Source of the DNA: a virus
Virus record (IMG/VR): IMGVR_UViG_3300045988_135063
DNA length: 51,368 bases
Direction: 5' to 3' (one strand)
A program made the translations under genes and the position numbers. Under the pieces are notes generated by a model. That model ran no database searches. It worked only from the letters and a program-made list of their open reading frames with translations, and was not told the DNA's origin. Shown piece by piece: positions 16,478-51,368 of the stretch (its first letter is position 1; the number at the start of each line of letters is the position of its first letter).

Positions 16478-17347
16478 TTATTTTTTAGATCTCGCAGCTG
16501 CTCCAGTTAATACTGCGAATGCTTTAGGATGGAATACTGCTATCCCACAATAGAACTCAATTCTTGTACGATAACAAGGTTTACTTTCTAATTGACCTAA
16601 GTCCATTACTTGAACTCCACCATTAGTTAAACCAGATACATATTGCTCTGCACCGAACTTAACTGCATAAATGTGTTTCTCGTCAGTTAAACCGTCCTCT
16701 ACTGCTCTTATCTCAACATCACCATATTTAGATACCATTCTACCGAAAGCATCTTGACCCTGTTCTATATAGTGATTAGTTTCTTGTAATAGTTTCATTA
16801 GCTCTCTACGAGTAGCTTTATCCATGTAAAGAACATCAGCTCCACCCTCAACTGCATCTAATAACTCATTTAATGCATCTAAAGAAAGCTCTTTTTGTAT
16901 TTTAGTTCCTTTACCTTTTTCTAACCTCTTAGTTAAACCATCGAAACCGTTAGTTTCTTCTGTAGAATCACCTTTAAAGAAGTTTTTCTCGAAAGCCTTA
17001 GCAACTGCTTTTGCTTTTAACTCAGTTTGTAAAGCTCTTACATCGTTTATGTTACCTCTAGTCTTAGCTATGAATAAATCAACATCAACATCTCCACCTA
17101 GTATAACTAAATGTTCAGTTTCTCTTGATACAGTAGCCCCACTTTCAGTATAAGTACCGTTAACCTGTCTAAATCCTACAGTCGGTAAAGTTCCTACTAA
17201 GTTATATGAGTAACCATTCCCAACTACTTCCATAAAAGGTATTTTTTCTAAAACAGGTGAATTGTTAGCCATTGTAAGTATCACACCCTTTTGTAACATA
17301 TCTTGTGATAAATTGGCTGCATCTGTTAAATTTAATCCTATTGACAT
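16478..17347 (-). CDS. Major capsid protein
   Basis: 289 aa. Strong RBS. Lies between the scaffold and connector genes. Confidence 0.75.
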   Translation of the reverse strand: MSIGLNLTDAANLSQDMLQKGVILTMANNSPVLEKIPFMEVVGNGYSYNLVGTLPTVGFRQVNGTYTESGATVSRETEHLVILGGDVDVDLFIAKTRGNINDVRALQTELKAKAVAKAFEKNFFKGDSTEETNGFDGLTKRLEKGKGTKIQKELSLDALNELLDAVEGGADVLYMDKATRRELMKLLQETNHYIEQGQDAFGRMVSKYGDVEIRAVEDGLTDEKHIYAVKFGAEQYVSGLTNGGVQVMDLGQLESKPCYRTRIEFYCGIAVFHPKAFAVLTGAAARSKK

Positions 17348-28519: not shown

Positions 28520-28890
28520 TATTTTTGCTCCTTTTCTCTAGTACTTTTCTTTTCCCTTCTACCTCTAGTAATATTTAAGTGGTCTAAAGTATCATTTATA
28601 ACTGCTATCTGCTTTCTACCCCTTCTCTTTATTTGGTGAACTGAAAGTACAGGATATTCTGTTTTAGATACTTTATCTACATCCTTAGATTTTAATATGT
28701 CTGCTAAAAACCACTCAGTTAGTAAATATAATAAAGGTTGTGGCATATATTCTCCTACCTCTACAAAATACTCCTCTGTTATATCTATTATTTTTCTCTT
28801 TTTACTATCAAGATCAATTGAATGTTTTATAATTTCCTCTATTCTATATGTATACCTATTATTTATGCTATTGATTAGGCATCTACTCAT
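28519..28890 (-). CDS. Hypothetical protein (123 aa), basic C-terminus
   Basis: ORF coupled to its neighbours by overlapping start and stop. Confidence 0.55.
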   Translation of the reverse strand: MSRCLINSINNRYTYRIEEIIKHSIDLDSKKRKIIDITEEYFVEVGEYMPQPLLYLLTEWFLADILKSKDVDKVSKTEYPVLSVHQIKRRGRKQIAVINDTLDHLNITRGRREKKSTREKEQK

Positions 28891-29212
28891 TACAAGACAC
28901 CTCCCCCCAGACTTTTAATACCTTTCTTATCTTATCTTTTGACCTTTTCACATTATTAAAAGTTGCTTGGGTAGTGTAATTATACATTTTGGCAATCTCC
29001 TCAAGTGTATATCCTTGTATGAAATACAGGTTAAAGACATCTAATTGTGTTTTTGTTAATTTTGCCTTTTTAATTAATATTTCCATATCAACAATGGTAT
29101 CTATTACATCAAAATTACTTGTATAATATGCCTGTTCCTTTAACATTGGTAAATTTTTTACTGTACTGTATACAGTCTTTTCATTGTAACGTATATTACT
29201 TTTATTGCTCAT
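28883..29212 (-). CDS. Sigma-70 region-4-like / late transcription regulator-like protein
   Basis: 109 aa. LTKTQLDVFNLYFIQGYTLEEIAKMYNYTTQATFNNVKRSKDKI matches the region-4 HTH pattern. Confidence 0.5.
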   Translation of the reverse strand: MSNKSNIRYNEKTVYSTVKNLPMLKEQAYYTSNFDVIDTIVDMEILIKKAKLTKTQLDVFNLYFIQGYTLEEIAKMYNYTTQATFNNVKRSKDKIRKVLKVWGEVSCNE

Positions 29213-29738
29213 CTAATAATTTATTTATTATATTTAGTACCTCCCTTTGTAATTCCTCTATAGTTCCATTATTAACTATTGTTATATCAGCCTCTACTAC
29301 TTCGGAAAACTGCTCCGTTTCGTGGCTTAAATCTTCTAGGTTAAACACATCCCCAGAGTTTAGCATTCTTGATAATCTAACACCCTCATCTGCCTCTATT
29401 TTGATTATCGTAAATCCATTTTCTTTTAATGCTTTTACCTCGTTTTCTTGTCTAACATCGGTTATAACTATTCTGTGATAATCTTCTTTTTGCACAGTCT
29501 TTAGTAGATAGTTAACCCATACATCAGCATCTAGTTTTCTCATGGATTGACCTATATATTGATAGTGTTTTCTAGGTTTACCTTGTTCTCTAGCAGTTGG
29601 AAAATATTTATCTATTATCTCACCTATACCATCAGCAAAAGCATATTTTTTAAAGTCATATTCATTAATAAGCCATTCCCCTATGGTATCCTTACCACTC
29701 CTCATTTTCCCTATTAAGCCAATCTTTAACTTTTTCAT
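29202..29738 (-). CDS. Deoxynucleoside monophosphate kinase-like P-loop protein
   Basis: 178 aa. N-terminal GLIGKMRSGKDT P-loop, with layout as in phage dNMP kinases. Confidence 0.55.
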   Translation of the reverse strand: MKKLKIGLIGKMRSGKDTIGEWLINEYDFKKYAFADGIGEIIDKYFPTAREQGKPRKHYQYIGQSMRKLDADVWVNYLLKTVQKEDYHRIVITDVRQENEVKALKENGFTIIKIEADEGVRLSRMLNSGDVFNLEDLSHETEQFSEVVEADITIVNNGTIEELQREVLNIINKLLDEQ

Positions 29739-29924: not shown

Positions 29925-30236
29925 ATGAGAAAAAACATCAAGGATTTAATGTATAGTAGCATTAATAATGACTTAAAGGATTTAGTGGATAGGCATGGAG
30001 AAATAACAGTTAATTGTAAACTGGATGAACTTTTGGAGGAAAGAGGGTTATCACAAAAAGAGTTTTCTAAAATGTCTGGACTTAGAGAAAACATTATCTC
30101 GGAGTTTAAAAATCTAAAAAAACACAATATTAATTTGGGTACTTTGGTAATTATTATGTGTGTTTTGGGAATAACAGATATAACAGATGTATTAGAGATT
30201 GAATTTGGATTACGAAATTTACATCATATGGTATAA
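29925..30236 (+). CDS. XRE-family HTH regulator (candidate lysogeny repressor)
   Basis: 103 aa. LDELLEERGLSQKEFSKMSGLRENIISEFKN. One of only two plus-strand genes. Confidence 0.7.
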   Translation: MRKNIKDLMYSSINNDLKDLVDRHGEITVNCKLDELLEERGLSQKEFSKMSGLRENIISEFKNLKKHNINLGTLVIIMCVLGITDITDVLEIEFGLRNLHHMV

Positions 30237-36219: not shown

Positions 36220-37398
36220 CTAGAAGAACATCCCCATTAAACTAGCAGATATTAAAGAAGTTAATACCCCACCTAGTAAAGCCTTGAACCCTAAAGAAGT
36301 TACCTCGTCAGCCTTTTCTGGGCAGAATGTTTTAAAGCCTCCTATAGTTATTCCTATTACAGAGAAGTTAGCAAAGTTGACTAGAGCTATTCCTAGCATT
36401 GCCTGAGTTCTAATAGATAAAGTACTCATTACCTCAGTTAAACCACCTATAGCCACATACTCATTTACGGCAGTTTTTAAACCGATAGCAGAGGTAAATG
36501 TAGCTATCTCACTTGAAGGTATTCCCATTAATTTAGCTAATGGATAAAGCATTATAGTAAATATCTCAGTTAAAGATGTGCCGAACCATCCTAGAACAAA
36601 ATTAACCAAAGCTATTAATGATATAAACCCTATCAATACTGCTCCTACCGATAAAGCTATATTTAAGCCATCCATAGCTCCAGAACCTATAGCATCAAAT
36701 ATATTAGAATGCTCAGAACCCTCTATTTTTATTTCTGTTGTTTTGCTTTCTTCTGTTTCTGGCACTAACATTTTAGCCATTAGTAAAGTAGCGAATGGGA
36801 CTGTTGCCATTTGTACCAGTATATATTCCATGTTTATCCCCATTGTAGAATATCCTAAAACCACAGATACAGATACAGAGGCAAATCCTCCTAATATAAC
36901 TGCAAATAATTCTGACCTTGTTAAATCTTTTAAGAAAGGTTTAGTTAATAATGGACTTTCTGTAGCACTTAAAAATGCATTACCAACTCCACAAAAACTC
37001 TCTACTGGAGTAGTACCCATTATTTTACTAACTATCCCACCTACAACCCTTACAAAGAATGGTATTACCTTTAAATAGTATAATAGAGCTATTAATGACC
37101 CTGTAAAACAAATTACTGATAATACTGTTATTGCAAAAGCACCTGTTCCTATTAAACTATCACCAAATACAAAAGATATTCCCTCAGAGCTAAATCCTAA
37201 CACAGTAGTTATGCCATTAGAAATACCCTTTAAAATCCATTGTCCTATTGATGTTTTTAATACAAAGAACATCATTACTATTTGGGCTAGTAGTCCTATA
37301 CCAACTGTCCTCCAGTTTATAGCCTTTCTGTTCTCTGAGAACAAATAACCCACACCTAATAAGAAAATGGTTGTTAAAATTCCATACAAAATATTCAC
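36220..37398 (-). CDS. nupC: Concentrative nucleoside transporter, NupC/CNT family
   Basis: 392 aa polytopic membrane protein. GFSSEGISFVFGD and NFANFSVIGITIGGFK align by eye with E. coli NupC GFANEGTNFVFG and FANFSSIGIIAGAVKG. Confidence 0.88.
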   Translation of the reverse strand: MNILYGILTTIFLLGVGYLFSENRKAINWRTVGIGLLAQIVMMFFVLKTSIGQWILKGISNGITTVLGFSSEGISFVFGDSLIGTGAFAITVLSVICFTGSLIALLYYLKVIPFFVRVVGGIVSKIMGTTPVESFCGVGNAFLSATESPLLTKPFLKDLTRSELFAVILGGFASVSVSVVLGYSTMGINMEYILVQMATVPFATLLMAKMLVPETEESKTTEIKIEGSEHSNIFDAIGSGAMDGLNIALSVGAVLIGFISLIALVNFVLGWFGTSLTEIFTIMLYPLAKLMGIPSSEIATFTSAIGLKTAVNEYVAIGGLTEVMSTLSIRTQAMLGIALVNFANFSVIGITIGGFKTFCPEKADEVTSLGFKALLGGVLTSLISASLMGMFF

Positions 37399-37803: not shown

Positions 37804-38457
37804 TTATTTTTCTTTTCCCATTTCCTCTAATTTATCAGTAACTATTTGTACTAACTTTTGAGCATCCTCTGAATTATTTACAACATCCATATTATCCATA
37901 TCTATTACTATAATTGGTGATGCTTTATAACAGTTGTAAATCCACTCATCATAACCTTTCCACAATTCAAAGTAATATTGTTTAAGGGCATCATCTAACT
38001 CGTATCCCCTCCCCCTCTTTTTGATTCTCTCAAGCACTTTCTCAAAAGAGCCTTTTAGATAAACCATTAATTCTGGAGCTTTCTTTGGCATTCCATCAAT
38101 CTCTTTCACCATTTCCTCCAGTATTTCATCGTAAAGATCACTCTCTAACTGAGATATTCTCCCTAATCTACAATTCACATCTTTAAAATATTTATCTTCC
38201 CATAATGATCTATCTAAAACATTATTCGGATGAGATTGAGCCTCCTTAATGCTCATAAACCTACTACTTAAAAATTCTAACTGTAAAAGAAATGGATATC
38301 TTTTTGCCTGTATCTCTTCCTCTGAGGCAGTATAAAATTTCTCCAATACTCTATTATTCTCTACCTTTTCATAAAACACTTGAGAACCAAGAGCCTCACC
38401 TAAAATCTTGGCACAACTAGATTTACCTAGTCCTATCATTCCACCTATAACAATCAT
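37804..38457 (-). CDS. Deoxynucleoside kinase (dAK/dGK/dCK family)
   Basis: 217 aa. GMIGLGKSS P-loop, DRSLWED, RIKKRGRGYE. Confidence 0.85.
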   Translation of the reverse strand: MIVIGGMIGLGKSSCAKILGEALGSQVFYEKVENNRVLEKFYTASEEEIQAKRYPFLLQLEFLSSRFMSIKEAQSHPNNVLDRSLWEDKYFKDVNCRLGRISQLESDLYDEILEEMVKEIDGMPKKAPELMVYLKGSFEKVLERIKKRGRGYELDDALKQYYFELWKGYDEWIYNCYKASPIIVIDMDNMDVVNNSEDAQKLVQIVTDKLEEMGKEK

Positions 38458-38460
38458 TTA

Positions 38461-38658
38461 TTAAAACTCCTTTTTATTTAACATATCAAATATTACGTTC
38501 CTTAGTGTATTTAGAGCCTTTTCTTTTCGTTCTAAAGATTTCTGTAACTCTAAAATCTCCTTATCCTTTTCAGAGATAACTATCTTTTGATCCTGTATTA
38601 TGGTATGTAAGCCCTTTATCTCATTTTCTATAGATAATAAGGCTAATGATTTAACCAT
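38461..38658 (-). CDS. Small coiled-coil protein (65 aa)
   Basis: Start overlaps the tdk stop (TAATG). Confidence 0.5.
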   Translation of the reverse strand: MVKSLALLSIENEIKGLHTIIQDQKIVISEKDKEILELQKSLERKEKALNTLRNVIFDMLNKKEF

Positions 38659-39233
38659 TACACCATACCCCCTGTATTTAACTCAGAGTAACATTTCCTA
38701 CATAAAGGTGTGTATTTATCATATGAGCCTATGTCTATAGTTTCCTTATTAGCACCCTCTATATTTTTTCTAGCTGATATATGAGCATCGTTCCCACACT
38801 CATTACAAACTGCTTTAAACTTATTTATCACATCAGCATGACACATTAAAGAGCCTGTTACCATGAATGCAGCATTGTCAAAAGTTAAATCTAGCCCCGA
38901 GCAGTAAATCACTTTACCCTTATCTAGTAATCTTAAAATATCGTCTATAATTGTAAAATTAAAGAATTGTATCTCATCAATTAGTATAACATCAGCCTCT
39001 AGTACTTCATCACAATAAATACTATCATTTATATCTACAACCATTGACTGAGTATAATCAGATGCCTCCCCGTCATGGCTCACTATTTTAGTATTAGAGT
39101 ACCTAGCATCTATAGTAGGCTTTATGTAAAGTACTTTATCTTTAGCTATTGTATGCCTCTTACCTTGCCTTAATAGTTCTGTAGTCTTTCCAGAAAACAT
39201 ACTCCCTACATTAACAGTTAATTTCCTTTTCAT
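38658..39233 (-). CDS. tdk: Thymidine kinase
   Basis: ATG at 39231-39233. GSMFSGKTTELLR, LIDEIQFF and C-terminal CxxC...CxxC. Confidence 0.9.
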   Translation of the reverse strand: MKRKLTVNVGSMFSGKTTELLRQGKRHTIAKDKVLYIKPTIDARYSNTKIVSHDGEASDYTQSMVVDINDSIYCDEVLEADVILIDEIQFFNFTIIDDILRLLDKGKVIYCSGLDLTFDNAAFMVTGSLMCHADVINKFKAVCNECGNDAHISARKNIEGANKETIDIGSYDKYTPLCRKCYSELNTGGMV

Positions 39234-39234
39234 C

Positions 39235-39495
39235 TTACACAATCTCCTCACTTAAATATTTTTTAGATAGTGATATTATTAAATCATCTTTTCTACAAAT
39301 TAATCTAACTGTAGGATCTTCATCTATAGCCGATAATAAATAGCCATAATCTTTAAGGATTTTTCCATTAAAGCCTACGATATAATATTTATCACCGTAA
39401 GAGCTGAATATTCCTAAATCTCCATCACAATCTACTAAATCACCTAAAAATATACAACTAACATTTCTTTCTATGTGATTCTTTATTGTTGCCAT
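39235..39495 (-). CDS. Hypothetical protein (~86 aa)
   Basis: ATG at 39493-39495, 8 nt after GGAGG. Confidence 0.5.
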   Translation of the reverse strand: MATIKNHIERNVSCIFLGDLVDCDGDLGIFSSYGDKYYIVGFNGKILKDYGYLLSAIDEDPTVRLICRKDDLIISLSKKYLSEEIV

Positions 39496-45615: not shown

Positions 45616-46884
45616 TTAAATATAATCAATAGCAGATGCCTCTTTAATAATCCCCCTATTGAAATCACATTGTAATGTAAGCTCTTTATCTACGTTAGGA
45701 GTTCTAGTCTTTGCCAGTTTTAGTTTTCCTATCCCGTCTGCTTGGTCGAAAGTTAAAATAGTACAAGCATCTTGTATTACTGCTACGGTTTCCGAATATT
45801 GATGTAATTCTGGAGGTTTCGGTATTCTTATTCCAGTATCTTCATCTGATACCCTATTCTCCTTTTCTGCCGATGTTGGGGTTTGATGTATTACTACACC
45901 TACAACTCCATACTTTCCGAACACTTGCCTTAGTTTTCTACTTGTACTGGTCATAGCATCTCTATTGCTGCTTTTACCTTTGTGGCTCATTAGATTAAAA
46001 CCATCTATTATAACCATCTTTATATTATCATTAGCCTGTAAGTCTGCCTCTATCACATCTATAGATAAACCATTTTTTAAATCTTCCATTGTCTTTACCA
46101 TGTATGGAGTGTCTTGATCCTCTGGGTTAAACTTTTCTAAGTATCTAAAATAATTATCTTCATTATATAAATCACCACTCTTTAAAGCCGAGTTCGTAAA
46201 CTTACCATGTAAAGTATCTAGCCTTTGTAACTGTTGTTCCTTTGAAAGCTCTGGGGAATAATGTAGCACTCCAAAATTATTAGCCCATGCAGTTACACCT
46301 ATGTCTGAGCCTAACCACGATTTACCTCTATTTGTATAAGCCATGATTAACAGGTAATCACCTAACTCAAACCCCCCACCTAAATATTTTGTTAATGTCT
46401 TGTACGGTGTAGGTATATATTTAAAAGTCCTCTGCTCTTTACTTAGTCTGTACCATTCTGCCCTCTCATCCCCATTTGTAGCAAAATTCGTACCTAGAGT
46501 ATTATCCATCATAGATAAGTCCTTTAGATGACTTACCTCTCCATGTAGCCAGTTTACAAACTTTACTCCGTCAAGTTCTGCGAATTTACTTGCGACCTCA
46601 TTTTGGATTAATTTATAGGCTCTAATTTTCGCAGTTTCCTGTTTTAATTTTTTACATAAATATGCAATATTATCAGTAACCTCTGGCATAAAATCGAAAT
46701 CCTCAAACTCATCCACCATAGCAGTAAATGATGGCATTTCTCCATATTCATATTTAAAATCCTTTACAAACTTAAACATATCTCGGCATGATGTAAAATC
46801 ATTTTCTGTTATATTATATTTCGTCAGCTCATGTAAACAGTTCTCATTTATTACCTTATTAATTAATTTTAATTCTATTACCAT
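45616..46884 (-). CDS. dnaB: Replicative DNA helicase (DnaB-like)
   Basis: 422 aa. Walker A AYTNRGKSW, MVIIDGFNLM and RecA-like C-terminal domain motifs. Confidence 0.85.
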   Translation of the reverse strand: MVIELKLINKVINENCLHELTKYNITENDFTSCRDMFKFVKDFKYEYGEMPSFTAMVDEFEDFDFMPEVTDNIAYLCKKLKQETAKIRAYKLIQNEVASKFAELDGVKFVNWLHGEVSHLKDLSMMDNTLGTNFATNGDERAEWYRLSKEQRTFKYIPTPYKTLTKYLGGGFELGDYLLIMAYTNRGKSWLGSDIGVTAWANNFGVLHYSPELSKEQQLQRLDTLHGKFTNSALKSGDLYNEDNYFRYLEKFNPEDQDTPYMVKTMEDLKNGLSIDVIEADLQANDNIKMVIIDGFNLMSHKGKSSNRDAMTSTSRKLRQVFGKYGVVGVVIHQTPTSAEKENRVSDEDTGIRIPKPPELHQYSETVAVIQDACTILTFDQADGIGKLKLAKTRTPNVDKELTLQCDFNRGIIKEASAIDYI

Positions 46885-47645
46885 TATCTGAATAATCCTC
46901 CCTTTCGATGATCCTCTCCTTTAAAACCTACTGGGTAACATTGCCCCTCTATTCTCGATACAATTCTATCTCCCAGAATATCTCCCATACTATTAATTGG
47001 ATAATTAGAGGTATATATTGTAGCTCGATCCTCCGTACATCTAGTATCAATCACATCGTATAGCTCATTTTTAAAGGCATCTGTTAAATCTCTTATACCT
47101 ATATCGTCAATAACTAATAGCTCAACATTTTTCATTCTGCTTAATAATGCAAAATATTTTGTAGACATATCTTGCTGATTAGAATATCCTCCCCTAAACT
47201 GAGAGTTATATATATTCTGCATTTCCGAAAGTTTTATAAACATAGTAGGATTATCACCGAAATTAAAATCATTTCTAATAAACTCTCCAACTCTAGCAAT
47301 TAAATACTCATGTAAAATTGTTATTGCCGAGGTAGTTTTACCTGTACCTGTCCCTAGTCGATTATTAGCATTAGGAACAGAGAACAAATATAACCCCATC
47401 CCCTTCTCTTTTACATACCTTAATACATCTTTACTATATTTCTCTATAACATTAAATGCATTCGGATTTTCTTCTCTTATCGGTAAATTTTCTATAAAGC
47501 AATTTTCATATTTTTTCGGTACTCTCGTACTGTTCCAATAACCTCTATTACCCTCAATACCATGCAATACCACATAAGAAAAGCACTCTTTATTACATTG
47601 ACTTGTATTAACTATAGAGCATTTCTTTTTAAATTTGCAGTCCAT
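46884..47645 (-). CDS. DnaC/IstB-like AAA+ helicase loader with Cys-rich N-terminus
   Basis: ATG at 47643-47645 after GGGAGG. GTGTGKTT and LLVIDDIG. Confidence 0.75.
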   Translation of the reverse strand: MDCKFKKKCSIVNTSQCNKECFSYVVLHGIEGNRGYWNSTRVPKKYENCFIENLPIREENPNAFNVIEKYSKDVLRYVKEKGMGLYLFSVPNANNRLGTGTGKTTSAITILHEYLIARVGEFIRNDFNFGDNPTMFIKLSEMQNIYNSQFRGGYSNQQDMSTKYFALLSRMKNVELLVIDDIGIRDLTDAFKNELYDVIDTRCTEDRATIYTSNYPINSMGDILGDRIVSRIEGQCYPVGFKGEDHRKGGLFR

Positions 47646-47677
47646 GTGTAACCTCCCTGTATCAATTATTTTCATAG

Positions 47678-47730: not shown

Positions 47731-47756
47731 AAAAAAAAGAGAGGCTTTTGCCTCCC
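47731..47756 (-). terminator. Terminator after parR-like gene
   Basis: gaggc/gcctc stem after an 8-nt A-run. Confidence 0.5.
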
Positions 47757-47777
47757 TTATCGTTTCATATTGTTTAT

Positions 47778-48089
47778 TTACTTAATAAACTTAGCTAATG
47801 CTCCAGTCAATGCTTTCCTCTGACCTTCCGAAATACCTTCCGAATTATCCCTCTCTCCTTGAGGTTGTTGGCTAGGTGGTTGGGCTTGTTGTACTTGCCC
47901 AATCATTCCCCTATTTATCATATCCTTTAGAACTGCCACCAACTCTGATACCTCTGAGTTTTCTTTATTCTTTTGCATATCCTCTCGTATTAACTTTTTT
48001 ACATAAGAAGTAAAAGATATATCAAGATCATCTAAGTGATTCAAAATATCACAATCTTTTACCTCATTAAAAGATACTGGTTTTATCAC
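47778..48089 (-). CDS. parR: ParR-like centromere-binding adaptor (RHH-like N-terminus)
   Basis: Small ORF directly after parM (start GTG at 48089 or 48098). KPVSFNEVKDCDILNHLD...FTSYVKKLIRED, then a low-complexity linker and a C-terminal helix. Confidence 0.5.
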   Translation of the reverse strand: MIKPVSFNEVKDCDILNHLDDLDISFTSYVKKLIREDMQKNKENSEVSELVAVLKDMINRGMIGQVQQAQPPSQQPQGERDNSEGISEGQRKALTGALAKFIK

Positions 48090-48101
48090 ACTAATCACTC
48101 C

Positions 48102-49031
48102 CTACATCTTAGCTACTAATCTAAGTATTTTACTATTTACAAATTGAGCATCCTTTACTTGCTCTGCATGAGTGTAGTGTTTTGTAAAGTATTTGAAAGT
48201 AGAATAAACACCACCACCGAAAATTGATATTTTTTCAACCTGTCCTACTTTAAATTTAGCCTCCTCTATAGAAGATACTACACCATCCACAAACTCCTGT
48301 ACCATTAAGTATATAGCAGATATATCAACAGGTACTTGGTTTATAGGGATTACTGTTTTTTCCTTGCAGATTATTTTTTCTATATCTCCAGTAGTAAATG
48401 AACCCCCGTAATTATAGTTTAAATACTCTGCTATATTTAGATACATATTTGTTATACTTGCATCTAATGTTGTGTAATTTACAGGGGACATATCTTCCCA
48501 CTCTACAACGTTGATAGTTCCACCACCTATATCTATAGTTAATTGATGGCTCATATCTTCATTAAGAACAGGTAAAGCACCCTCTATAAAGAATTTTAAA
48601 TCTACTATCTCTATTGTATATGTATTATATTTTCCAGTATTCTCATCTTTTATAGCAAGTTCTTGAACTCCCCAACTTTCTATTATAGAACGAACTTCCT
48701 CGACTTTTCTCTCAAAGTTCATAATTGGTAAGCCTAAACAAATTTTAGCTCTTACATTTCTTTTTCTTCCAGATTTTAAAGCTATTGCAGTAAGCACACA
48801 TAATTTATATGCATCTGTTGAATATTTAAACTCACCCATTACTGCCTTTCCATCACCTACAACATAATCAACTCCATTATAATTGACTTGGTGTACTTCT
48901 ATTCTTTTATCTAACTCTAATTTCTTTCCTATTTTAACCTTAGTTGCAAATTTCATATTTGAGAAATTAGCATATGCATTTCCTATATCAAAACCTTCTG
49001 TTAAATTTGGTATTACTAATGTATTATTCAT
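48102..49031 (-). CDS. parM: Actin-like segregation ATPase (ParM/Alp family)
   Basis: 309 aa. Phosphate-1 FDIGNAYAN, phosphate-2 IDIGGGTINV, adenosine motif IFGGGVYS. Confidence 0.75.
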   Translation of the reverse strand: MNNTLVIPNLTEGFDIGNAYANFSNMKFATKVKIGKKLELDKRIEVHQVNYNGVDYVVGDGKAVMGEFKYSTDAYKLCVLTAIALKSGRKRNVRAKICLGLPIMNFERKVEEVRSIIESWGVQELAIKDENTGKYNTYTIEIVDLKFFIEGALPVLNEDMSHQLTIDIGGGTINVVEWEDMSPVNYTTLDASITNMYLNIAEYLNYNYGGSFTTGDIEKIICKEKTVIPINQVPVDISAIYLMVQEFVDGVVSSIEEAKFKVGQVEKISIFGGGVYSTFKYFTKHYTHAEQVKDAQFVNSKILRLVAKM

Positions 49032-49242
49032 CTTGATCTCCTCCTGTTACCTATTTAAATTGGTAATCTCTTTCTTATTATTATTTTTTTTATTTCTTGT
49101 TTCTTATTATATATATTTAAATCAATTCGTTGCGAATTGTTATAGACCTTTTTATCTCAAGCAAGTTATCTAAGATTTGATTTTTATATTATAACCGACT
49201 TGAGCGACTTGTTTTGTGTTTCTTGTCCTCTTGACAATATTT

Positions 49243-49271
49243 ATTATATATCATATCAAAAAATAATGCAA
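49243..49271 (-). promoter_or_regulatory. Sigma-A-type promoter TTGCAT-17-TATAAT for parMR
   Basis: Minus strand: TTGCAT (49266-49271), TATAAT (49243-49248). Abuts iteron cluster 1. Confidence 0.6.
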
Positions 49272-49274
49272 TAC

Positions 49275-49330
49275 TTTTTTATATATTTTTTATATAAATT
49301 TATATATTTTTATATATACTTTATATATAA
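49275..49330. repeat. parC-like iteron cluster 1: five TTATATA-type repeats at 10-11 bp period
   Basis: tatat cores start at 49280, 49291, 49301, 49311 and 49322. The 38-nt segment 49280-49317 is identical to 49397-49434. Confidence 0.8.
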
Positions 49331-49380
49331 TTTAGGTATACCAACAGTTTGAGCCTCATATCTTTTTCTAATTTTCTTTA

Positions 49381-49476
49381 TTTTTTATATACAATATATA
49401 TATTTTTTATATAAATTTATATATTTTTATATATCTCTTATATACAGTATATATATCATATAATCTTTATATAAAG
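49381..49476. repeat. parC-like iteron cluster 2: about eight TTATATA-type repeats at about 10 bp period
   Basis: tatat cores start at 49386, 49395, 49408, 49418, 49428, 49439, 49448 and 49468. Confidence 0.8.
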
Positions 49477-49505
49477 TTGCACAATACCTGAGTTTATCCT
49501 AAACT
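49477..49505 (+). promoter_or_regulatory. Sigma-A-type promoter TTGCAC-17-TAAACT for the zinc-ribbon gene
   Basis: Plus strand: TTGCAC (49477-49482), TAAACT (49500-49505). Confidence 0.45.
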
Positions 49506-49526: not shown

Positions 49527-49748
49527 ATGAAATGTACTGCTTGTGGTAGTGAAATGATGTGTGTATCAGTTTGTGAAGGAGTTTTTGCTGAGGATGTTCT
49601 AGGTGATGATGTCAGATGTACTGGGGAACTGTGTTATTTAAATGATAATAAATGTAGTAAGTGTGATGCTTGTGCTTATGATACAATAGTAAACATTAAA
49701 GAATATCGTTGCCCAGAATGTGATTCGGTGATACAACATACTTATTAA
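49527..49748 (+). CDS. Cys-rich zinc-ribbon protein (73 aa)
   Basis: AAGGGGGG RBS. CTAC, CSKCDAC and CPEC pairs. Plus strand, divergent from parMR. Confidence 0.65.
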   Translation: MKCTACGSEMMCVSVCEGVFAEDVLGDDVRCTGELCYLNDNKCSKCDACAYDTIVNIKEYRCPECDSVIQHTY

Positions 49749-49774: not shown

Positions 49775-49811
49775 AAAAAAGGAGAGGTTCATCTGCCTCT
49801 CCTTATTTTTT
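49775..49811. terminator. Bidirectional terminator
   Basis: 9-bp stem aaggagagg/cctctcctt with an A-run on the left and a T-run on the right. Confidence 0.7.
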
Positions 49812-49823
49812 CCTATTTCAATT

Positions 49824-50747
49824 TTACAGTTCCATAAAATCAGAATAATCTGCATCTATATAATCAGCAGTTTGATCTATCAACTGCTTACTTTTCTTAT
49901 CTGCTTTTTGCTGCTCCAGTAAAACTCGTACTACCTCGTTGCATAACCATGAGCAAAGCATACCTATAGTTGGGTATGGGTATTTACTATTCCCCCATCT
50001 TGATGGGTATTCCTTTATCGTTAAATGTATAATCTCTACAATCTCATCAATACTAAAATTCTTTATAAGTTTGTTTTTAATTAAACCTAAATCCCTTTTA
50101 TAGTTTATTACATATGACTTGCCATATGCCTCTTTATATTGTTCTGCAAAATAATGTGCAAGGTCTTTACTATTCTTAATAACTTTCTTAGATGGTTCTA
50201 TAACCTCCTCAGAGCCATTTTCCGTAGTTTCTACAACCTTATCAGTAATTTCATCAACAGGACTATCACAACCTGTTACAAGGGCATCCTCTCGTACCTC
50301 AAACCTATCCTCATCTATAGCATCTATATCAACTGTATTTATATCTCTATGGTCCTCTATATCAATATCTTTAGGTGAAAGATCGAATATAGTATATACA
50401 GAGTTTTTACGTTGACCTGTTCCCCTTAAAACTCTATCTAAGATAGGCATTCCATTTATCTGTATCTCTAATAAGTTAGATACTGCTTTGTTTACAGTAG
50501 TTAAAGATAAACCTGTTATCTCTGCAATCTGTCTTTGTGTGGGATAGCACTCTCCTCCAGTATTCATAAATGAGGCTATTCCTAATAATACCGTAAGTTC
50601 CGAACCCCTCACATGATGGAGTAAACCATTCCTAATAGCAGTAACATCTATTTTTAAATAGGTATCATATCGAGTCTGCTTATTTGTGGCATCATGCTCA
50701 GTATTAAACACGATAGATAAAAATTTACCAGTTTCTATATTTTTCAT
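49824..50747 (-). CDS. wHTH DNA-binding protein, replication-initiator-like
   Basis: ATG at 50745-50747 after AAGGAGG. ECYPTQRQIAEITGLSLTTVNKAVSNLLE. First gene of the replication cluster. Confidence 0.5.
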   Translation of the reverse strand: MKNIETGKFLSIVFNTEHDATNKQTRYDTYLKIDVTAIRNGLLHHVRGSELTVLLGIASFMNTGGECYPTQRQIAEITGLSLTTVNKAVSNLLEIQINGMPILDRVLRGTGQRKNSVYTIFDLSPKDIDIEDHRDINTVDIDAIDEDRFEVREDALVTGCDSPVDEITDKVVETTENGSEEVIEPSKKVIKNSKDLAHYFAEQYKEAYGKSYVINYKRDLGLIKNKLIKNFSIDEIVEIIHLTIKEYPSRWGNSKYPYPTIGMLCSWLCNEVVRVLLEQQKADKKSKQLIDQTADYIDADYSDFMEL

Positions 50748-50779
50748 TTTATCAAGTCCTCCTTTAATCATTACAATAA

Positions 50780-50903: not shown

Positions 50904-51037
50904 AATAAATAAAATATGCTTTTCACACTATAAAAGCCTTTTTAAGCTATATTTTGTATTTAGGTATATAATTACCTTATTTCTAAGTTAAAATTGCTTA
51001 GGAGGGCATTTAAGCCCTCTGAGTGCTATCTAAACAC

Positions 51038-51368
51038 CTACCCCCTAGATACCACTCTATCCTCAGCATATGCTTGATCTATTACAGTAGTATCTACTTG
51101 ATAGTATTTTGCATAATGTTTAGCTAGGTTAACATTAGTATCTAAAAGGTGTCCTTTACCCTCTATTATGTCTATGTAAGTAGTGTAACCAATACAATCC
51201 CTAATAAAATTAAAATTTGGTGATGTATTTGGGTATACAGGTAAACCAGTCTTTGTATCTATTGGATAGCTTTGATTTTGGCTTTGATCTTGACTTTCTA
51301 CAGTAGCAACTTCATCAACTTGGACCCCTTGAACATCTTGAGTATCTTGAACATCTTGAGTATCTTGA
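51038..51368 (-). CDS. C-terminal part of the initiator/organiser-like CDS that starts at nt 857
   Basis: The minus frame is open from 51368 to a TAG at 51038-51040 and is in frame with 1-857 across the junction. Confidence 0.55.
   Translation of the reverse strand, partial: QDTQDVQDTQDVQGVQVDEVATVESQDQSQNQSYPIDTKTGLPVYPNTSPNFNFIRDCIGYTTYIDIIEGKGHLLDTNVNLAKHYAKYYQVDTTVIDQAYAEDRVVSRG
51324..51368 (-). repeat. Tandem 9-bp coding repeat at window end
   Basis: accccttga, acatcttga, gtatcttga, acatcttga, gtatcttga. Continues the array at 1-36. Confidence 0.9.

Follow-up and report, generated by a model that had tools for sequence, protein, structure and literature searches.

A putative type II partition cassette in the replication module of a Clostridium-associated siphovirus

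The IMG/VR virus record IMGVR_UViG_3300045988_135063, a stretch of 51,368 nucleotides referred to here as the window, contains a gene for an actin-like ATPase set among phage replication genes. This arrangement raises the question of whether a tailed phage can hold a complete plasmid-type partition system, and of what such a system would do for the phage. A preliminary description, made from the sequence alone, had proposed a cassette in the parC-parM-parR order of plasmid R1 and a phage-plasmid that segregates actively. We find that the whole 51-kb tailed phage, which comes from gut metagenomes, holds a full ParM/ParR/parC cassette. The locus is likely to be a type II (ParMRC-type) partition cassette of a Clostridium-associated siphovirus that most likely exists as an extrachromosomal plasmid-prophage. 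Coordinates given here refer to the whole window, the cassette is read 5’ to 3’ on the minus strand, and L-numbers (L002, L011, L015 and others) denote related loci or contigs.

The identity of the ATPase was examined by sequence, profile and fold. The 309-aa open reading frame (ORF) reads FDIGNAYANF, TIDIGGGTINV and FGGGVYS, and the motifs DIGNAYAN, IDIGGGTINV and FGGGVYS named in the preliminary description are therefore present in the sequence. Pfam family ALP_N matched the protein at 36.2 bits against a gathering cut-off of 26.3, and PHROG 691 (“partition protein”) matched over the full length with an E value of 2.5e-28. A single-sequence search of the PDB returned a weak match to pSK41 ParM alone (E 0.007), so profile and fold searches were needed. 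With a profile of 29 homologues, the best matches were Alp12 (4apw, 1.5e-14), Cbc/CBg-ParM (7x54, 5.7e-14) and pCBH ParM (6izr, 1.2e-10), followed by AlfA (6e-9) and R1 ParM (2e-6), whereas FtsA and MreB reached just 0.01-0.09. The AlphaFold2 (AF2) model had a predicted local distance difference test score (pLDDT) of 92.4 and a predicted template modelling score of 0.87. In a Foldseek search of the PDB with this model, ranks 1-27 were all of the ParM/Alp type and included pSK41 ParM, B. thuringiensis ParM, C. botulinum ParMs, Alp12, Dh-cParM1, R1 ParM, Alp7A, CorM, AlfA and the ParM-like archaeal Ta0583; MreBs came after rank 27. Across the 29 homologues, the nucleotide-binding residues D15, G17, E150, D167, G169, G171, T172 and G272-274 were invariant. 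As modelled, the protein has the phosphate-1, phosphate-2 and adenosine motifs in a fold of the actin type, the fold of the ASKHA (acetate and sugar kinase/Hsc70/actin) superfamily, and it is nearer to ParM/Alp proteins than to MreB, FtsA, Hsp70 or sugar kinases. The pipeline of the Joint Genome Institute (JGI) labels an identical protein “plasmid segregation protein ParM”.

Relatives of this ParM are confined almost wholly to Clostridium. A tblastn search of a phage collection returned Clostridium and faecal records only, and cultured C. perfringens phages hold annotated ParM/StbA genes. Species-representative genomes gave no match in a close-relative scan, and the profile scan returned Clostridium only, plus one Alkalibaculum metagenome-assembled genome (MAG). 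The phage host is therefore probably Clostridium or a close relative.

A partition cassette of this type also has an adaptor gene behind parM. In 23 of the 23 loci of this ParM clade (Clostridium plasmids, isolate contigs, IMG/VR viral contigs and cultured C. perfringens phages), the next ORF after parM encoded a small protein with a K/R/Q-x-V/I-x-F/L ... F-x-x-Y-V/I-K-x-L-I/L motif. Direct homologue searches with the window protein found few relatives. By tblastn, pCpb2-CP1 and 12 other C. perfringens plasmids (13 in all) were detected at 3e-5. The ORF that follows parM on pCpb2-CP1 shares 45% identity with the window protein across its N-terminal 67 aa (pairwise E 5e-14), and that plasmid’s authors regarded it as the parR equivalent (PMC3506638). 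Three parts make up each member of the family: at the N-terminus a conserved domain of ~45 aa, then a linker of variable, low-complexity sequence, and last a conserved C-terminus, basic and amphipathic, with the segment S-x-x-Q-[KR]-K-A-x-x-x-L-x-x-F-x-K in the family alignment. In the window protein, the N-terminal domain reads K-P-V-x-F ... F-x-x-Y-V-K-x-L-I-x-x-D-M and the linker is rich in Q and P. By position and homology, the small ORF encodes the conserved partner of this ParM, a ParR-type adaptor.

The preliminary description had also called this protein ribbon-helix-helix (RHH)-like. The AF2 monomer had a pLDDT of 68, with residues 1-12 extended (pLDDT 79-88), helices at 13-22 and 26-59, disorder at 60-87 and a low-confidence C-terminal helix at 88-102. 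This predicted topology is compatible with an RHH domain, a linker and a ParM-binding helix. Pfam gave no RHH match to the protein (DUF6290 appeared at E 0.037 in 2 of 10 members), PDB profile searches with full-length and N-terminal alignments returned no RHH protein, and Foldseek found no match to the AF2 model. Alignment to pSK41 ParR with hhalign was in register and not significant (E 0.13-0.33). The top PDB “hits” (a SET domain protein, Fanzor and diphthine synthase) were rejected as short chance matches to the YVKxLI motif. The RHH fold was left unconfirmed by these searches.

Upstream of parM, the repeat (“iteron”) region of the preliminary description resolved into two blocks of direct repeats with the core TATATAA. 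Copies in block 1 start at 49473, 49462, 49453, 49444, 49433, 49423, 49413, 49402 and 49391, and those in block 2 at 49327, 49316, 49306, 49296 and 49285. The start-to-start spacing of 9-11 nt corresponds to about one helical turn, and Tandem Repeats Finder reported block 2 with a period of 11, 5.4 copies and 81% matches. Chance occurrence was assessed with 2000 dinucleotide-preserving shuffles of the 210-nt repeat core. TATATA occurred 17 times in the core compared to 4.95 +/- 2.1 in the shuffles (maximum 14), the longest chain of repeats at 9-12 nt spacing was 7 compared to a shuffle maximum of 4, and none of the 2000 shuffles equalled the observed values. In addition, 11 of the 37 minus-strand TATATAA copies in the 51-kb window fall inside this core. 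The repeats exceed chance even at 88% A+T. The published ParR_B half-site, GTATAATC, was searched for as well and occurred at chance level.

To compare related loci, we examined 450 nt upstream of each parM against control tiles from the same loci, mostly coding DNA. Arrays with a period of 10 or 11 were found upstream of parM in 18 of 22 loci and in 59 of 506 control tiles (Fisher p = 6e-13; the loci are phylogenetically related, so such p-values overstate independence), and the median count of GTATATA/TATATAA cores was 6 upstream of parM compared to 0 in the controls. Arrays were also present upstream of parM genes that have no adjoining HTH_36 initiator, as in L016 (Mob/TraG neighbours), pCpb2-CP1 (divergent rep) and L019-L026. 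The repeats thus appear to travel with the parM-parR pair and not with neighbouring genes. Together with the conserved small protein, these arrays bear out the proposed parC-parM-parR order.

The two-block layout recurs in the nearest relatives. In L015, the first block (7.9 copies, period 11) and the second (5.0 copies, 90% matches) occupy positions equivalent to those of the window blocks. L015 and L011, whose ParMs are 63-64% identical to that of the window, share an 11-bp block, a spacer holding a terminator, a five-repeat block and then a promoter with 17-nt spacing. The C. perfringens element pCPC216_2 has the same layout with another core, TATAGAA, in 5 + 4 copies followed by TTGCAA-17-TATACT, and its repeat core differs together with a correspondingly diverged ParR. 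In L015, L011 and pCPC216_2, the hairpin that terminates the upstream initiator gene lies in the spacer between the blocks. Among near-identical genomes, the copy number of block 1 varies by 22 bp (L002) or 11 bp (L018), which fits slippage by whole repeat units.

Between parM and the parR-like gene lies a gap of 12 nt; both genes have the same orientation and belong to the same operon, and the parR-like gene has its own ribosome-binding site. Another GTG at 48098 is a possible start for the parR-like ORF and would give 106 aa. The preliminary description had called the promoter a strong sigma-A type. A candidate directly after block 2, at 49271-49243(-), was found with a perfect -10 and a -35 matching 3 of 6 positions, but a consensus promoter scan, which listed 7 sites compared to 15.4 expected from shuffles, did not include it, and “strong” is therefore not upheld. 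Relatives have TTGACC-17-TATATT (L015), TTTACA-17-TATAAT (L011) and TTGCAA-17-TATACT (pCPC216_2) in the same place, and it is this positional conservation, not consensus strength, that supports the candidate. The terminator proposed at 47731-47756 was recovered with a small coordinate correction, its stem lying at 47758-47737(-) in our scan. The candidate promoter and the terminators on both sides give the locus the anatomy of an autonomous operon.

At ~210 nt, the parM leader is unusually long, compared to ~60-100 nt in relatives. It contains a perfect 7-bp inverted repeat, CAATTCG-CAA-CGAATTG, at 49123-49139(-), a possible operator or RNA hairpin. The fold z-score of the leader RNA, -2.5, was unremarkable, and an Rfam scan of the cassette gave no family above its gathering score.

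The cassette is seated between an initiator-like gene and dnaC/dnaB-like genes, as had been described, and the module order is initiator - parC - parM - parR - dnaC - dnaB - primase, with the placement kept in L011, L015 and pCPC216_2. The features of the cassette, its neighbours and other genes discussed below are collected in Table 1. For the divergent 73-aa ORF, the repeat region is its upstream DNA, and its membership in the cassette is uncertain. This ORF is called as a gene on the contigs of all close genomes and is absent in L015, L011 and L018.

Table 1. Features of the partition cassette, its flanks and other genes of the window (whole-window coordinates)
Feature	Coordinates	Strand	Remarks
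parM	48102-49031	-	309 aa, ParM/Alp actin-like ATPase
parR-like adaptor gene (putative)	47778-48089	-	103 aa; GTG start 8 nt past AGGGAG ribosome-binding site
Candidate parC block 1	49381-49475	-	nine direct repeats of ~10.5 bp; core TATATAA, some copies GTATATAA
Spacer	49336-49380	-	45 nt, non-repeat; separates blocks 1 and 2
Candidate parC block 2	49275-49329	-	five direct repeats of 10-11 bp; abuts promoter -35
Candidate sigma-A promoter of parMR operon	49243-49271	-	TTGCAT-17-TATAAT; sequence reading
Leader	49032-49242	-	~210 nt; ribosome-binding site AGGAGGAG at 49045-49038
Intrinsic terminator	47737-47758	-	closes parMR operon; 9-bp stem, 5 G-C pairs, then T-run
Bidirectional terminator	49779-49804	both	ends upstream initiator gene and divergent 73-aa ORF; insulates cassette
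HTH_36 initiator-like gene	49824-50771		
IstB/DnaC-like gene	46884-47675		
DnaB-like gene	45616-46884		
Divergent Cys-rich ORF	49527-49748	+	73 aa, zinc-ribbon-like (weak matches); strong ribosome-binding site
Small serine recombinase	23430-24053	-	207 aa; Resolvase domain and C-terminal helix-turn-helix (HTH); just upstream of terminase genes
Cro/C1-type HTH protein	29925-30236	+	103 aa; HTH_26, 7e-10; set among minus-strand genes
Concentrative nucleoside transporter	36220-37398	-	392 aa; Nucleos_tra2_N, Gate, Nucleos_tra2_C; E 1e-52
Thymidine kinase	38658-39251		
Deoxynucleoside kinase (dNK)	37804-38457		
Deoxynucleoside monophosphate (dNMP) kinase	29202-29738		
Sigma-70 region-4 / YlxM-like HTH protein	28883-29212	-	109 aa; UPF0122, 1.3e-7; ahead of packaging genes
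Major head protein	16478-17347	-	

The carrier of the cassette is a complete, circularly assembled siphovirus genome with a 27-nt terminal overlap and a G+C content of 32%. The same genome occurs in many samples, on European Nucleotide Archive contigs of ~50.7-51.3 kb with differing start points, and on one contig of 33 kb. A 398-aa gene spans the window ends (1-~1000 joined to ~51000-51368, minus strand; 6820-8016 in L002). The gene contains an 18-nt (QDTQDV) tandem repeat, and its product has a DnaD-like N-terminus (PHROG 13390 and 186) and is a candidate second initiator or loader. The exact circular junction and the repeat number are uncertain because the 27-nt overlap falls inside this tandem repeat. 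Structural and lysis genes include those for TerS, TerL, an SPP1-type portal, a major head protein, a tape measure, Dit, tail proteins and an amidase. For replication there are two DnaD/HTH_36-type proteins, DnaC-like and DnaB-like proteins, primase, Pol A, RuvC, a Cas4-like nuclease and methyltransferases, and for nucleotide metabolism a thymidine kinase, a dNK, a dNMP kinase and a nucleoside transporter. A complete virion gene set and plasmid-type replication and partition genes are present on one replicon.

A scan of the ORFs, which covered those below ~60-90 aa only in part, turned up no integrase of the tyrosine or large serine type. An identical ParM is indexed in 117 collection blocks, with no contig above the 50-200 kb bin, and among the 6 identical-ParM contigs listed (33-51 kb) the longest is 51,402 bp. 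No integration module was seen, and in these records the genome is never joined to chromosomal DNA. It does carry a small serine recombinase, which could be a dimer resolvase of a plasmid-prophage or an invertase; the gene is kept at the same place in pCPC216_2. Two called genes lie on the plus strand, namely the 73-aa ORF and the Cro/C1-type HTH gene. The product of the latter is a candidate prophage repressor, and its exact sequence was found on only 9 contigs and may be variable.

Megablast of the cassette and of both genome halves gave no match to cultured phages and plasmids, and the nearest relatives were found at the protein level only. The element pCPC216_2 (NZ_CP075975, a “plasmid” of C. 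perfringens C216) matched 21 of the 30 window proteins tested in collinear order, with identities of 66% for TerL, 63% for the portal, 56% for the major head protein, 58% for Pol A, 55% for DnaB, 51% for DnaC, 44% for primase and 30% for the initiator. It resembles the window in that its initiator, pair of repeat blocks, promoter, parM and small-protein gene are found at the same place, and differs in its repeat core and in its ParM, which is only 36% identical. A second element, pNPD12_2 (NZ_CP014147, C. botulinum, circular, 59 kb), is a complete phage genome that carries a ParM/ParR pair of this family (ParM 37% identical, with a partner protein), but has baseplate genes, and its parMR lies outside the replication module. 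The collinear pCPC216_2 and the ParM-family relative pNPD12_2, both deposited as plasmids of isolates, are indirect evidence of an extrachromosomal replicon. Phage-plasmids are reportedly common in clostridia (PMC10210947).

The nearest plasmid partition systems with supporting experiments are those of the pCW3-like conjugative plasmids, such as pCpb2-CP1. The ParM of pCpb2-CP1 is 33% identical to that of the window over the full length, and its upstream repeats share the 11-bp phasing and the GTATATA core. ParR families B, C and D of C. perfringens bind the direct repeats of their cognate parC in surface plasmon resonance, analytical ultracentrifugation and electrophoretic mobility shift assays (PMC9426499); these data reach the window ParR by analogy only. 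Whereas the window is a tailed phage, the pCW3-like replicons are conjugative toxin plasmids whose rep is divergent and whose oriV is separate. A pair of this ParM/ParR family was also seen on L016, a 29-kb contig of SRR23490974, together with a Mob_Pre relaxase, a TraG-like coupling protein and a resolvase. This contig, possibly a mobilisable plasmid that carries phage lysis genes, also has a holin and a choline-binding lysin.

Similarly, the window can be set beside partition and actin-like systems from other hosts. In E. coli, R1 ParMRC has the same parC-parM-parR order and a ParM with the actin fold (Foldseek 1mwm/4a62, E ~1e-13 to 5e-15), although the two ParMs are only ~16% identical in structural alignment. 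Work by Dam and Gerdes in 1994 reportedly defined the R1 centromere as 11-bp direct repeats in two blocks. PMC9426499, which cites that work, summarises R1 parC in the same terms and as tied to the operon promoter. In R1, 5 + 5 repeats flank the promoter, whereas in the window 9 + 5 repeats are followed by the promoter after block 2. R1 differs further in that its ParR has no detectable sequence similarity to the window protein, and the carrier of the window cassette is a phage.

Among phages, the Bacillus phages IEBH and vB_BtS_B83 are plasmid-prophages with a ParM-like protein, a small RHH adaptor and a putative centromere (PMC8026635). They and the B. cereus group plasmid-prophages resemble the window as siphoviruses of ~50 kb with an actin-like partition system (PMC8026635). 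They are maintained as circular plasmids. They differ from the window in having another host genus and Xer-type tyrosine recombinases in place of one small serine recombinase, and no close sequence kinship was seen by tblastn of ParM against the phage collection. The AlpC/AlpA/alpS system of the C. glutamicum prophage CGP3 likewise combines a phage actin-like protein with an adaptor that binds DNA and with binding sites lying upstream (PMC4446434, PMC5539076). CGP3 is unlike the window in being an integrated prophage in which AlpAC serves viral DNA replication and transport after induction. The best profile matches among solved structures, Alp12 (C. tetani pE88) and the pCBH and Cbc ParMs (C. 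botulinum), are all clostridial, yet distant from the window ParM at 16-18% identity in structural alignment. Filament architecture varies so widely among these relatives that the filament form of the window ParM cannot be predicted.

From this anatomy a mechanism can be proposed. Terminators on either side isolate the operon, which would be transcribed from the candidate promoter abutting block 2. This anatomy would allow its expression at times when the lytic replication genes next to it are silent. By analogy with R1, pSK41 and C. perfringens ParR, ParR dimers would bind the 9 + 5 phased repeats cooperatively to form a segrosome, and would probably repress their own promoter. The conserved C-terminal helix of ParR may then capture the ends of ATP-bound ParM filaments. 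As in R1 ParMRC, insertional polymerisation of ParM between two ParR-parC complexes would move sister genomes into opposite cell halves before division. More speculatively, the small serine recombinase might resolve genome dimers. The ParM-family ATPase, its conserved partner and the phased repeats linked to the pair are features of the locus itself; the segregation steps are projected onto it from the known systems.

Other readings of the locus were weighed against this one. The 309-aa protein could in principle be a non-polymerising ASKHA enzyme or chaperone, such as a sugar kinase or an Hsp70-like protein, with the small ORF an unrelated regulator, since the nucleotide-binding motifs are common to all ASKHA proteins. 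With zero kinase matches, an Hsp70 first at Foldseek rank 49, the best sequence and fold matches all ParM/Alp, and strict pairing with the small ORF at every one of the 23 loci, this is extremely improbable, and the kinase or Hsp70 identity, which the preliminary description had named as a refuting outcome, was rejected. It is very unlikely, though conceivable, that the repeats are a replication origin, in which they would serve as iterons for the HTH_36/DnaD-like initiator and as a DNA-unwinding element and not, or not only, as a centromere. The repeats do lie directly downstream of the initiator gene in the lowest G+C stretch of the region, and classic origins have their iterons next to an initiator. 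Against this, the period-10/11 arrays occur upstream of parM where an HTH_36 initiator does not adjoin, and in most such loci the core is of the GTATATA/TATATAA type; in pCW3-type plasmids oriV is a separate site upstream of rep (PMC9426499); the core of the repeats changes along with the ParR sequence; and other repeat candidates lie upstream of the second initiator-like gene. The comparative data thus favour a role of the repeats as parC over one as origin iterons.

The main rival gives the filaments a different function. As with AlpC/AlpA/alpS, they might serve chiefly in the lytic cycle, where they would transport replicating phage DNA or hold it in position and so make replication more efficient; we regard this as possible but unlikely. 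The conserved placement of the cassette inside the replication module would suit such a role, as would a unidirectional, virulent-looking genome with its own replisome, and a partition system is, according to the literature, no proof of a plasmid stage (PMC8026635, PMC4446434). These points favour the AlpC-like role, and several others count against the main reading. Nearly all genes lie on one strand and include those for Pol A, primase and helicase, a layout commoner in virulent phages; the genome offers a single weak repressor candidate; pCPC216_2 was deposited as a linear record whose “plasmid” status is a deposit label; both the RHH fold of the small protein and its binding to the repeats are putative; and the repeat zone, as the most A+T-rich stretch by the initiator gene (13.5% G+C), could double as an origin. 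On the other side, the operon’s own promoter and flanking terminators suggest expression apart from the lytic replication genes, homologous ParM/ParR pairs are carried by ordinary Clostridium plasmids as well as by phage genomes that were deposited as plasmids of isolates, and no integrase was found among the ORFs scanned that would serve the alternative of integrated lysogeny. Partition and an AlpC-like role are not mutually exclusive and can coexist. In this lineage of Clostridium siphoviruses (the window, L011, L015 and pCPC216_2), the cassette is built into a replication module of the lytic type, in a unidirectional genome with its own replisome, and might therefore have a dual purpose: to organise or space replicating phage genomes in productive or carrier-state infection, and to segregate a low-copy prophage. 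ParR-parC beside the initiator gene could then couple origin use to partition. We hold this combination to be decidedly unlikely; if true, the positioning of genomes by tubulin in jumbo phages would have an actin-based counterpart in a small and common gut phage.

Taken together, we infer that the phage-plasmid, or plasmid-prophage, is the best supported reading, and that the phage is probably maintained as a free plasmid and not integrated. The phage-plasmid proposed in the preliminary description has comparative support from pCPC216_2 and pNPD12_2; its plasmid-prophage state and its active segregation are presumptive. The cassette is a further, uncultivated case of a kind known from Clostridium plasmids and plasmid-prophages and brings no new principle; ParM with an adaptor has already been documented in plasmid-prophages (PMC8026635). 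What is mildly new is a clearly defined motif for the ParR family of this clostridial clade, a two-block parC like that of R1, and a cassette whose place in the replication module is fixed across a widespread phage lineage.

Other genes of the window also merit mention. The concentrative nucleoside transporter and the thymidine, deoxynucleoside and dNMP kinases form an apparent module for nucleoside uptake and salvage. A membrane transporter is unusual cargo for a phage, and this one is present in some strain variants (L003, L031). The sigma-70 region-4 / YlxM-like HTH protein is a possible late-gene activator. The major head family was found at ~35% identity in 954 plasmid records, mostly Klebsiella, E. 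coli and Yersinia plasmids of ~110 kb, and at 48-49% identity in Bacillus plasmids of ~60 kb; because of these matches, the capsid type of the window can be said to recur across phyla on elements deposited as plasmids.

If the plasmid-prophage reading holds, a phage of many metagenome assemblies would persist in a Clostridium-like host as an actively partitioned plasmid, without integration. This would affect whether the element is counted as a virus or as a plasmid, and the stability of accessory cargo such as the nucleoside-salvage module. It would also bear on the incompatibility of co-resident elements through ParR-parC specificity, as in C. perfringens plasmids. At ~1.7 kb and well delimited, the cassette is a compact test object for clostridial type II partition.

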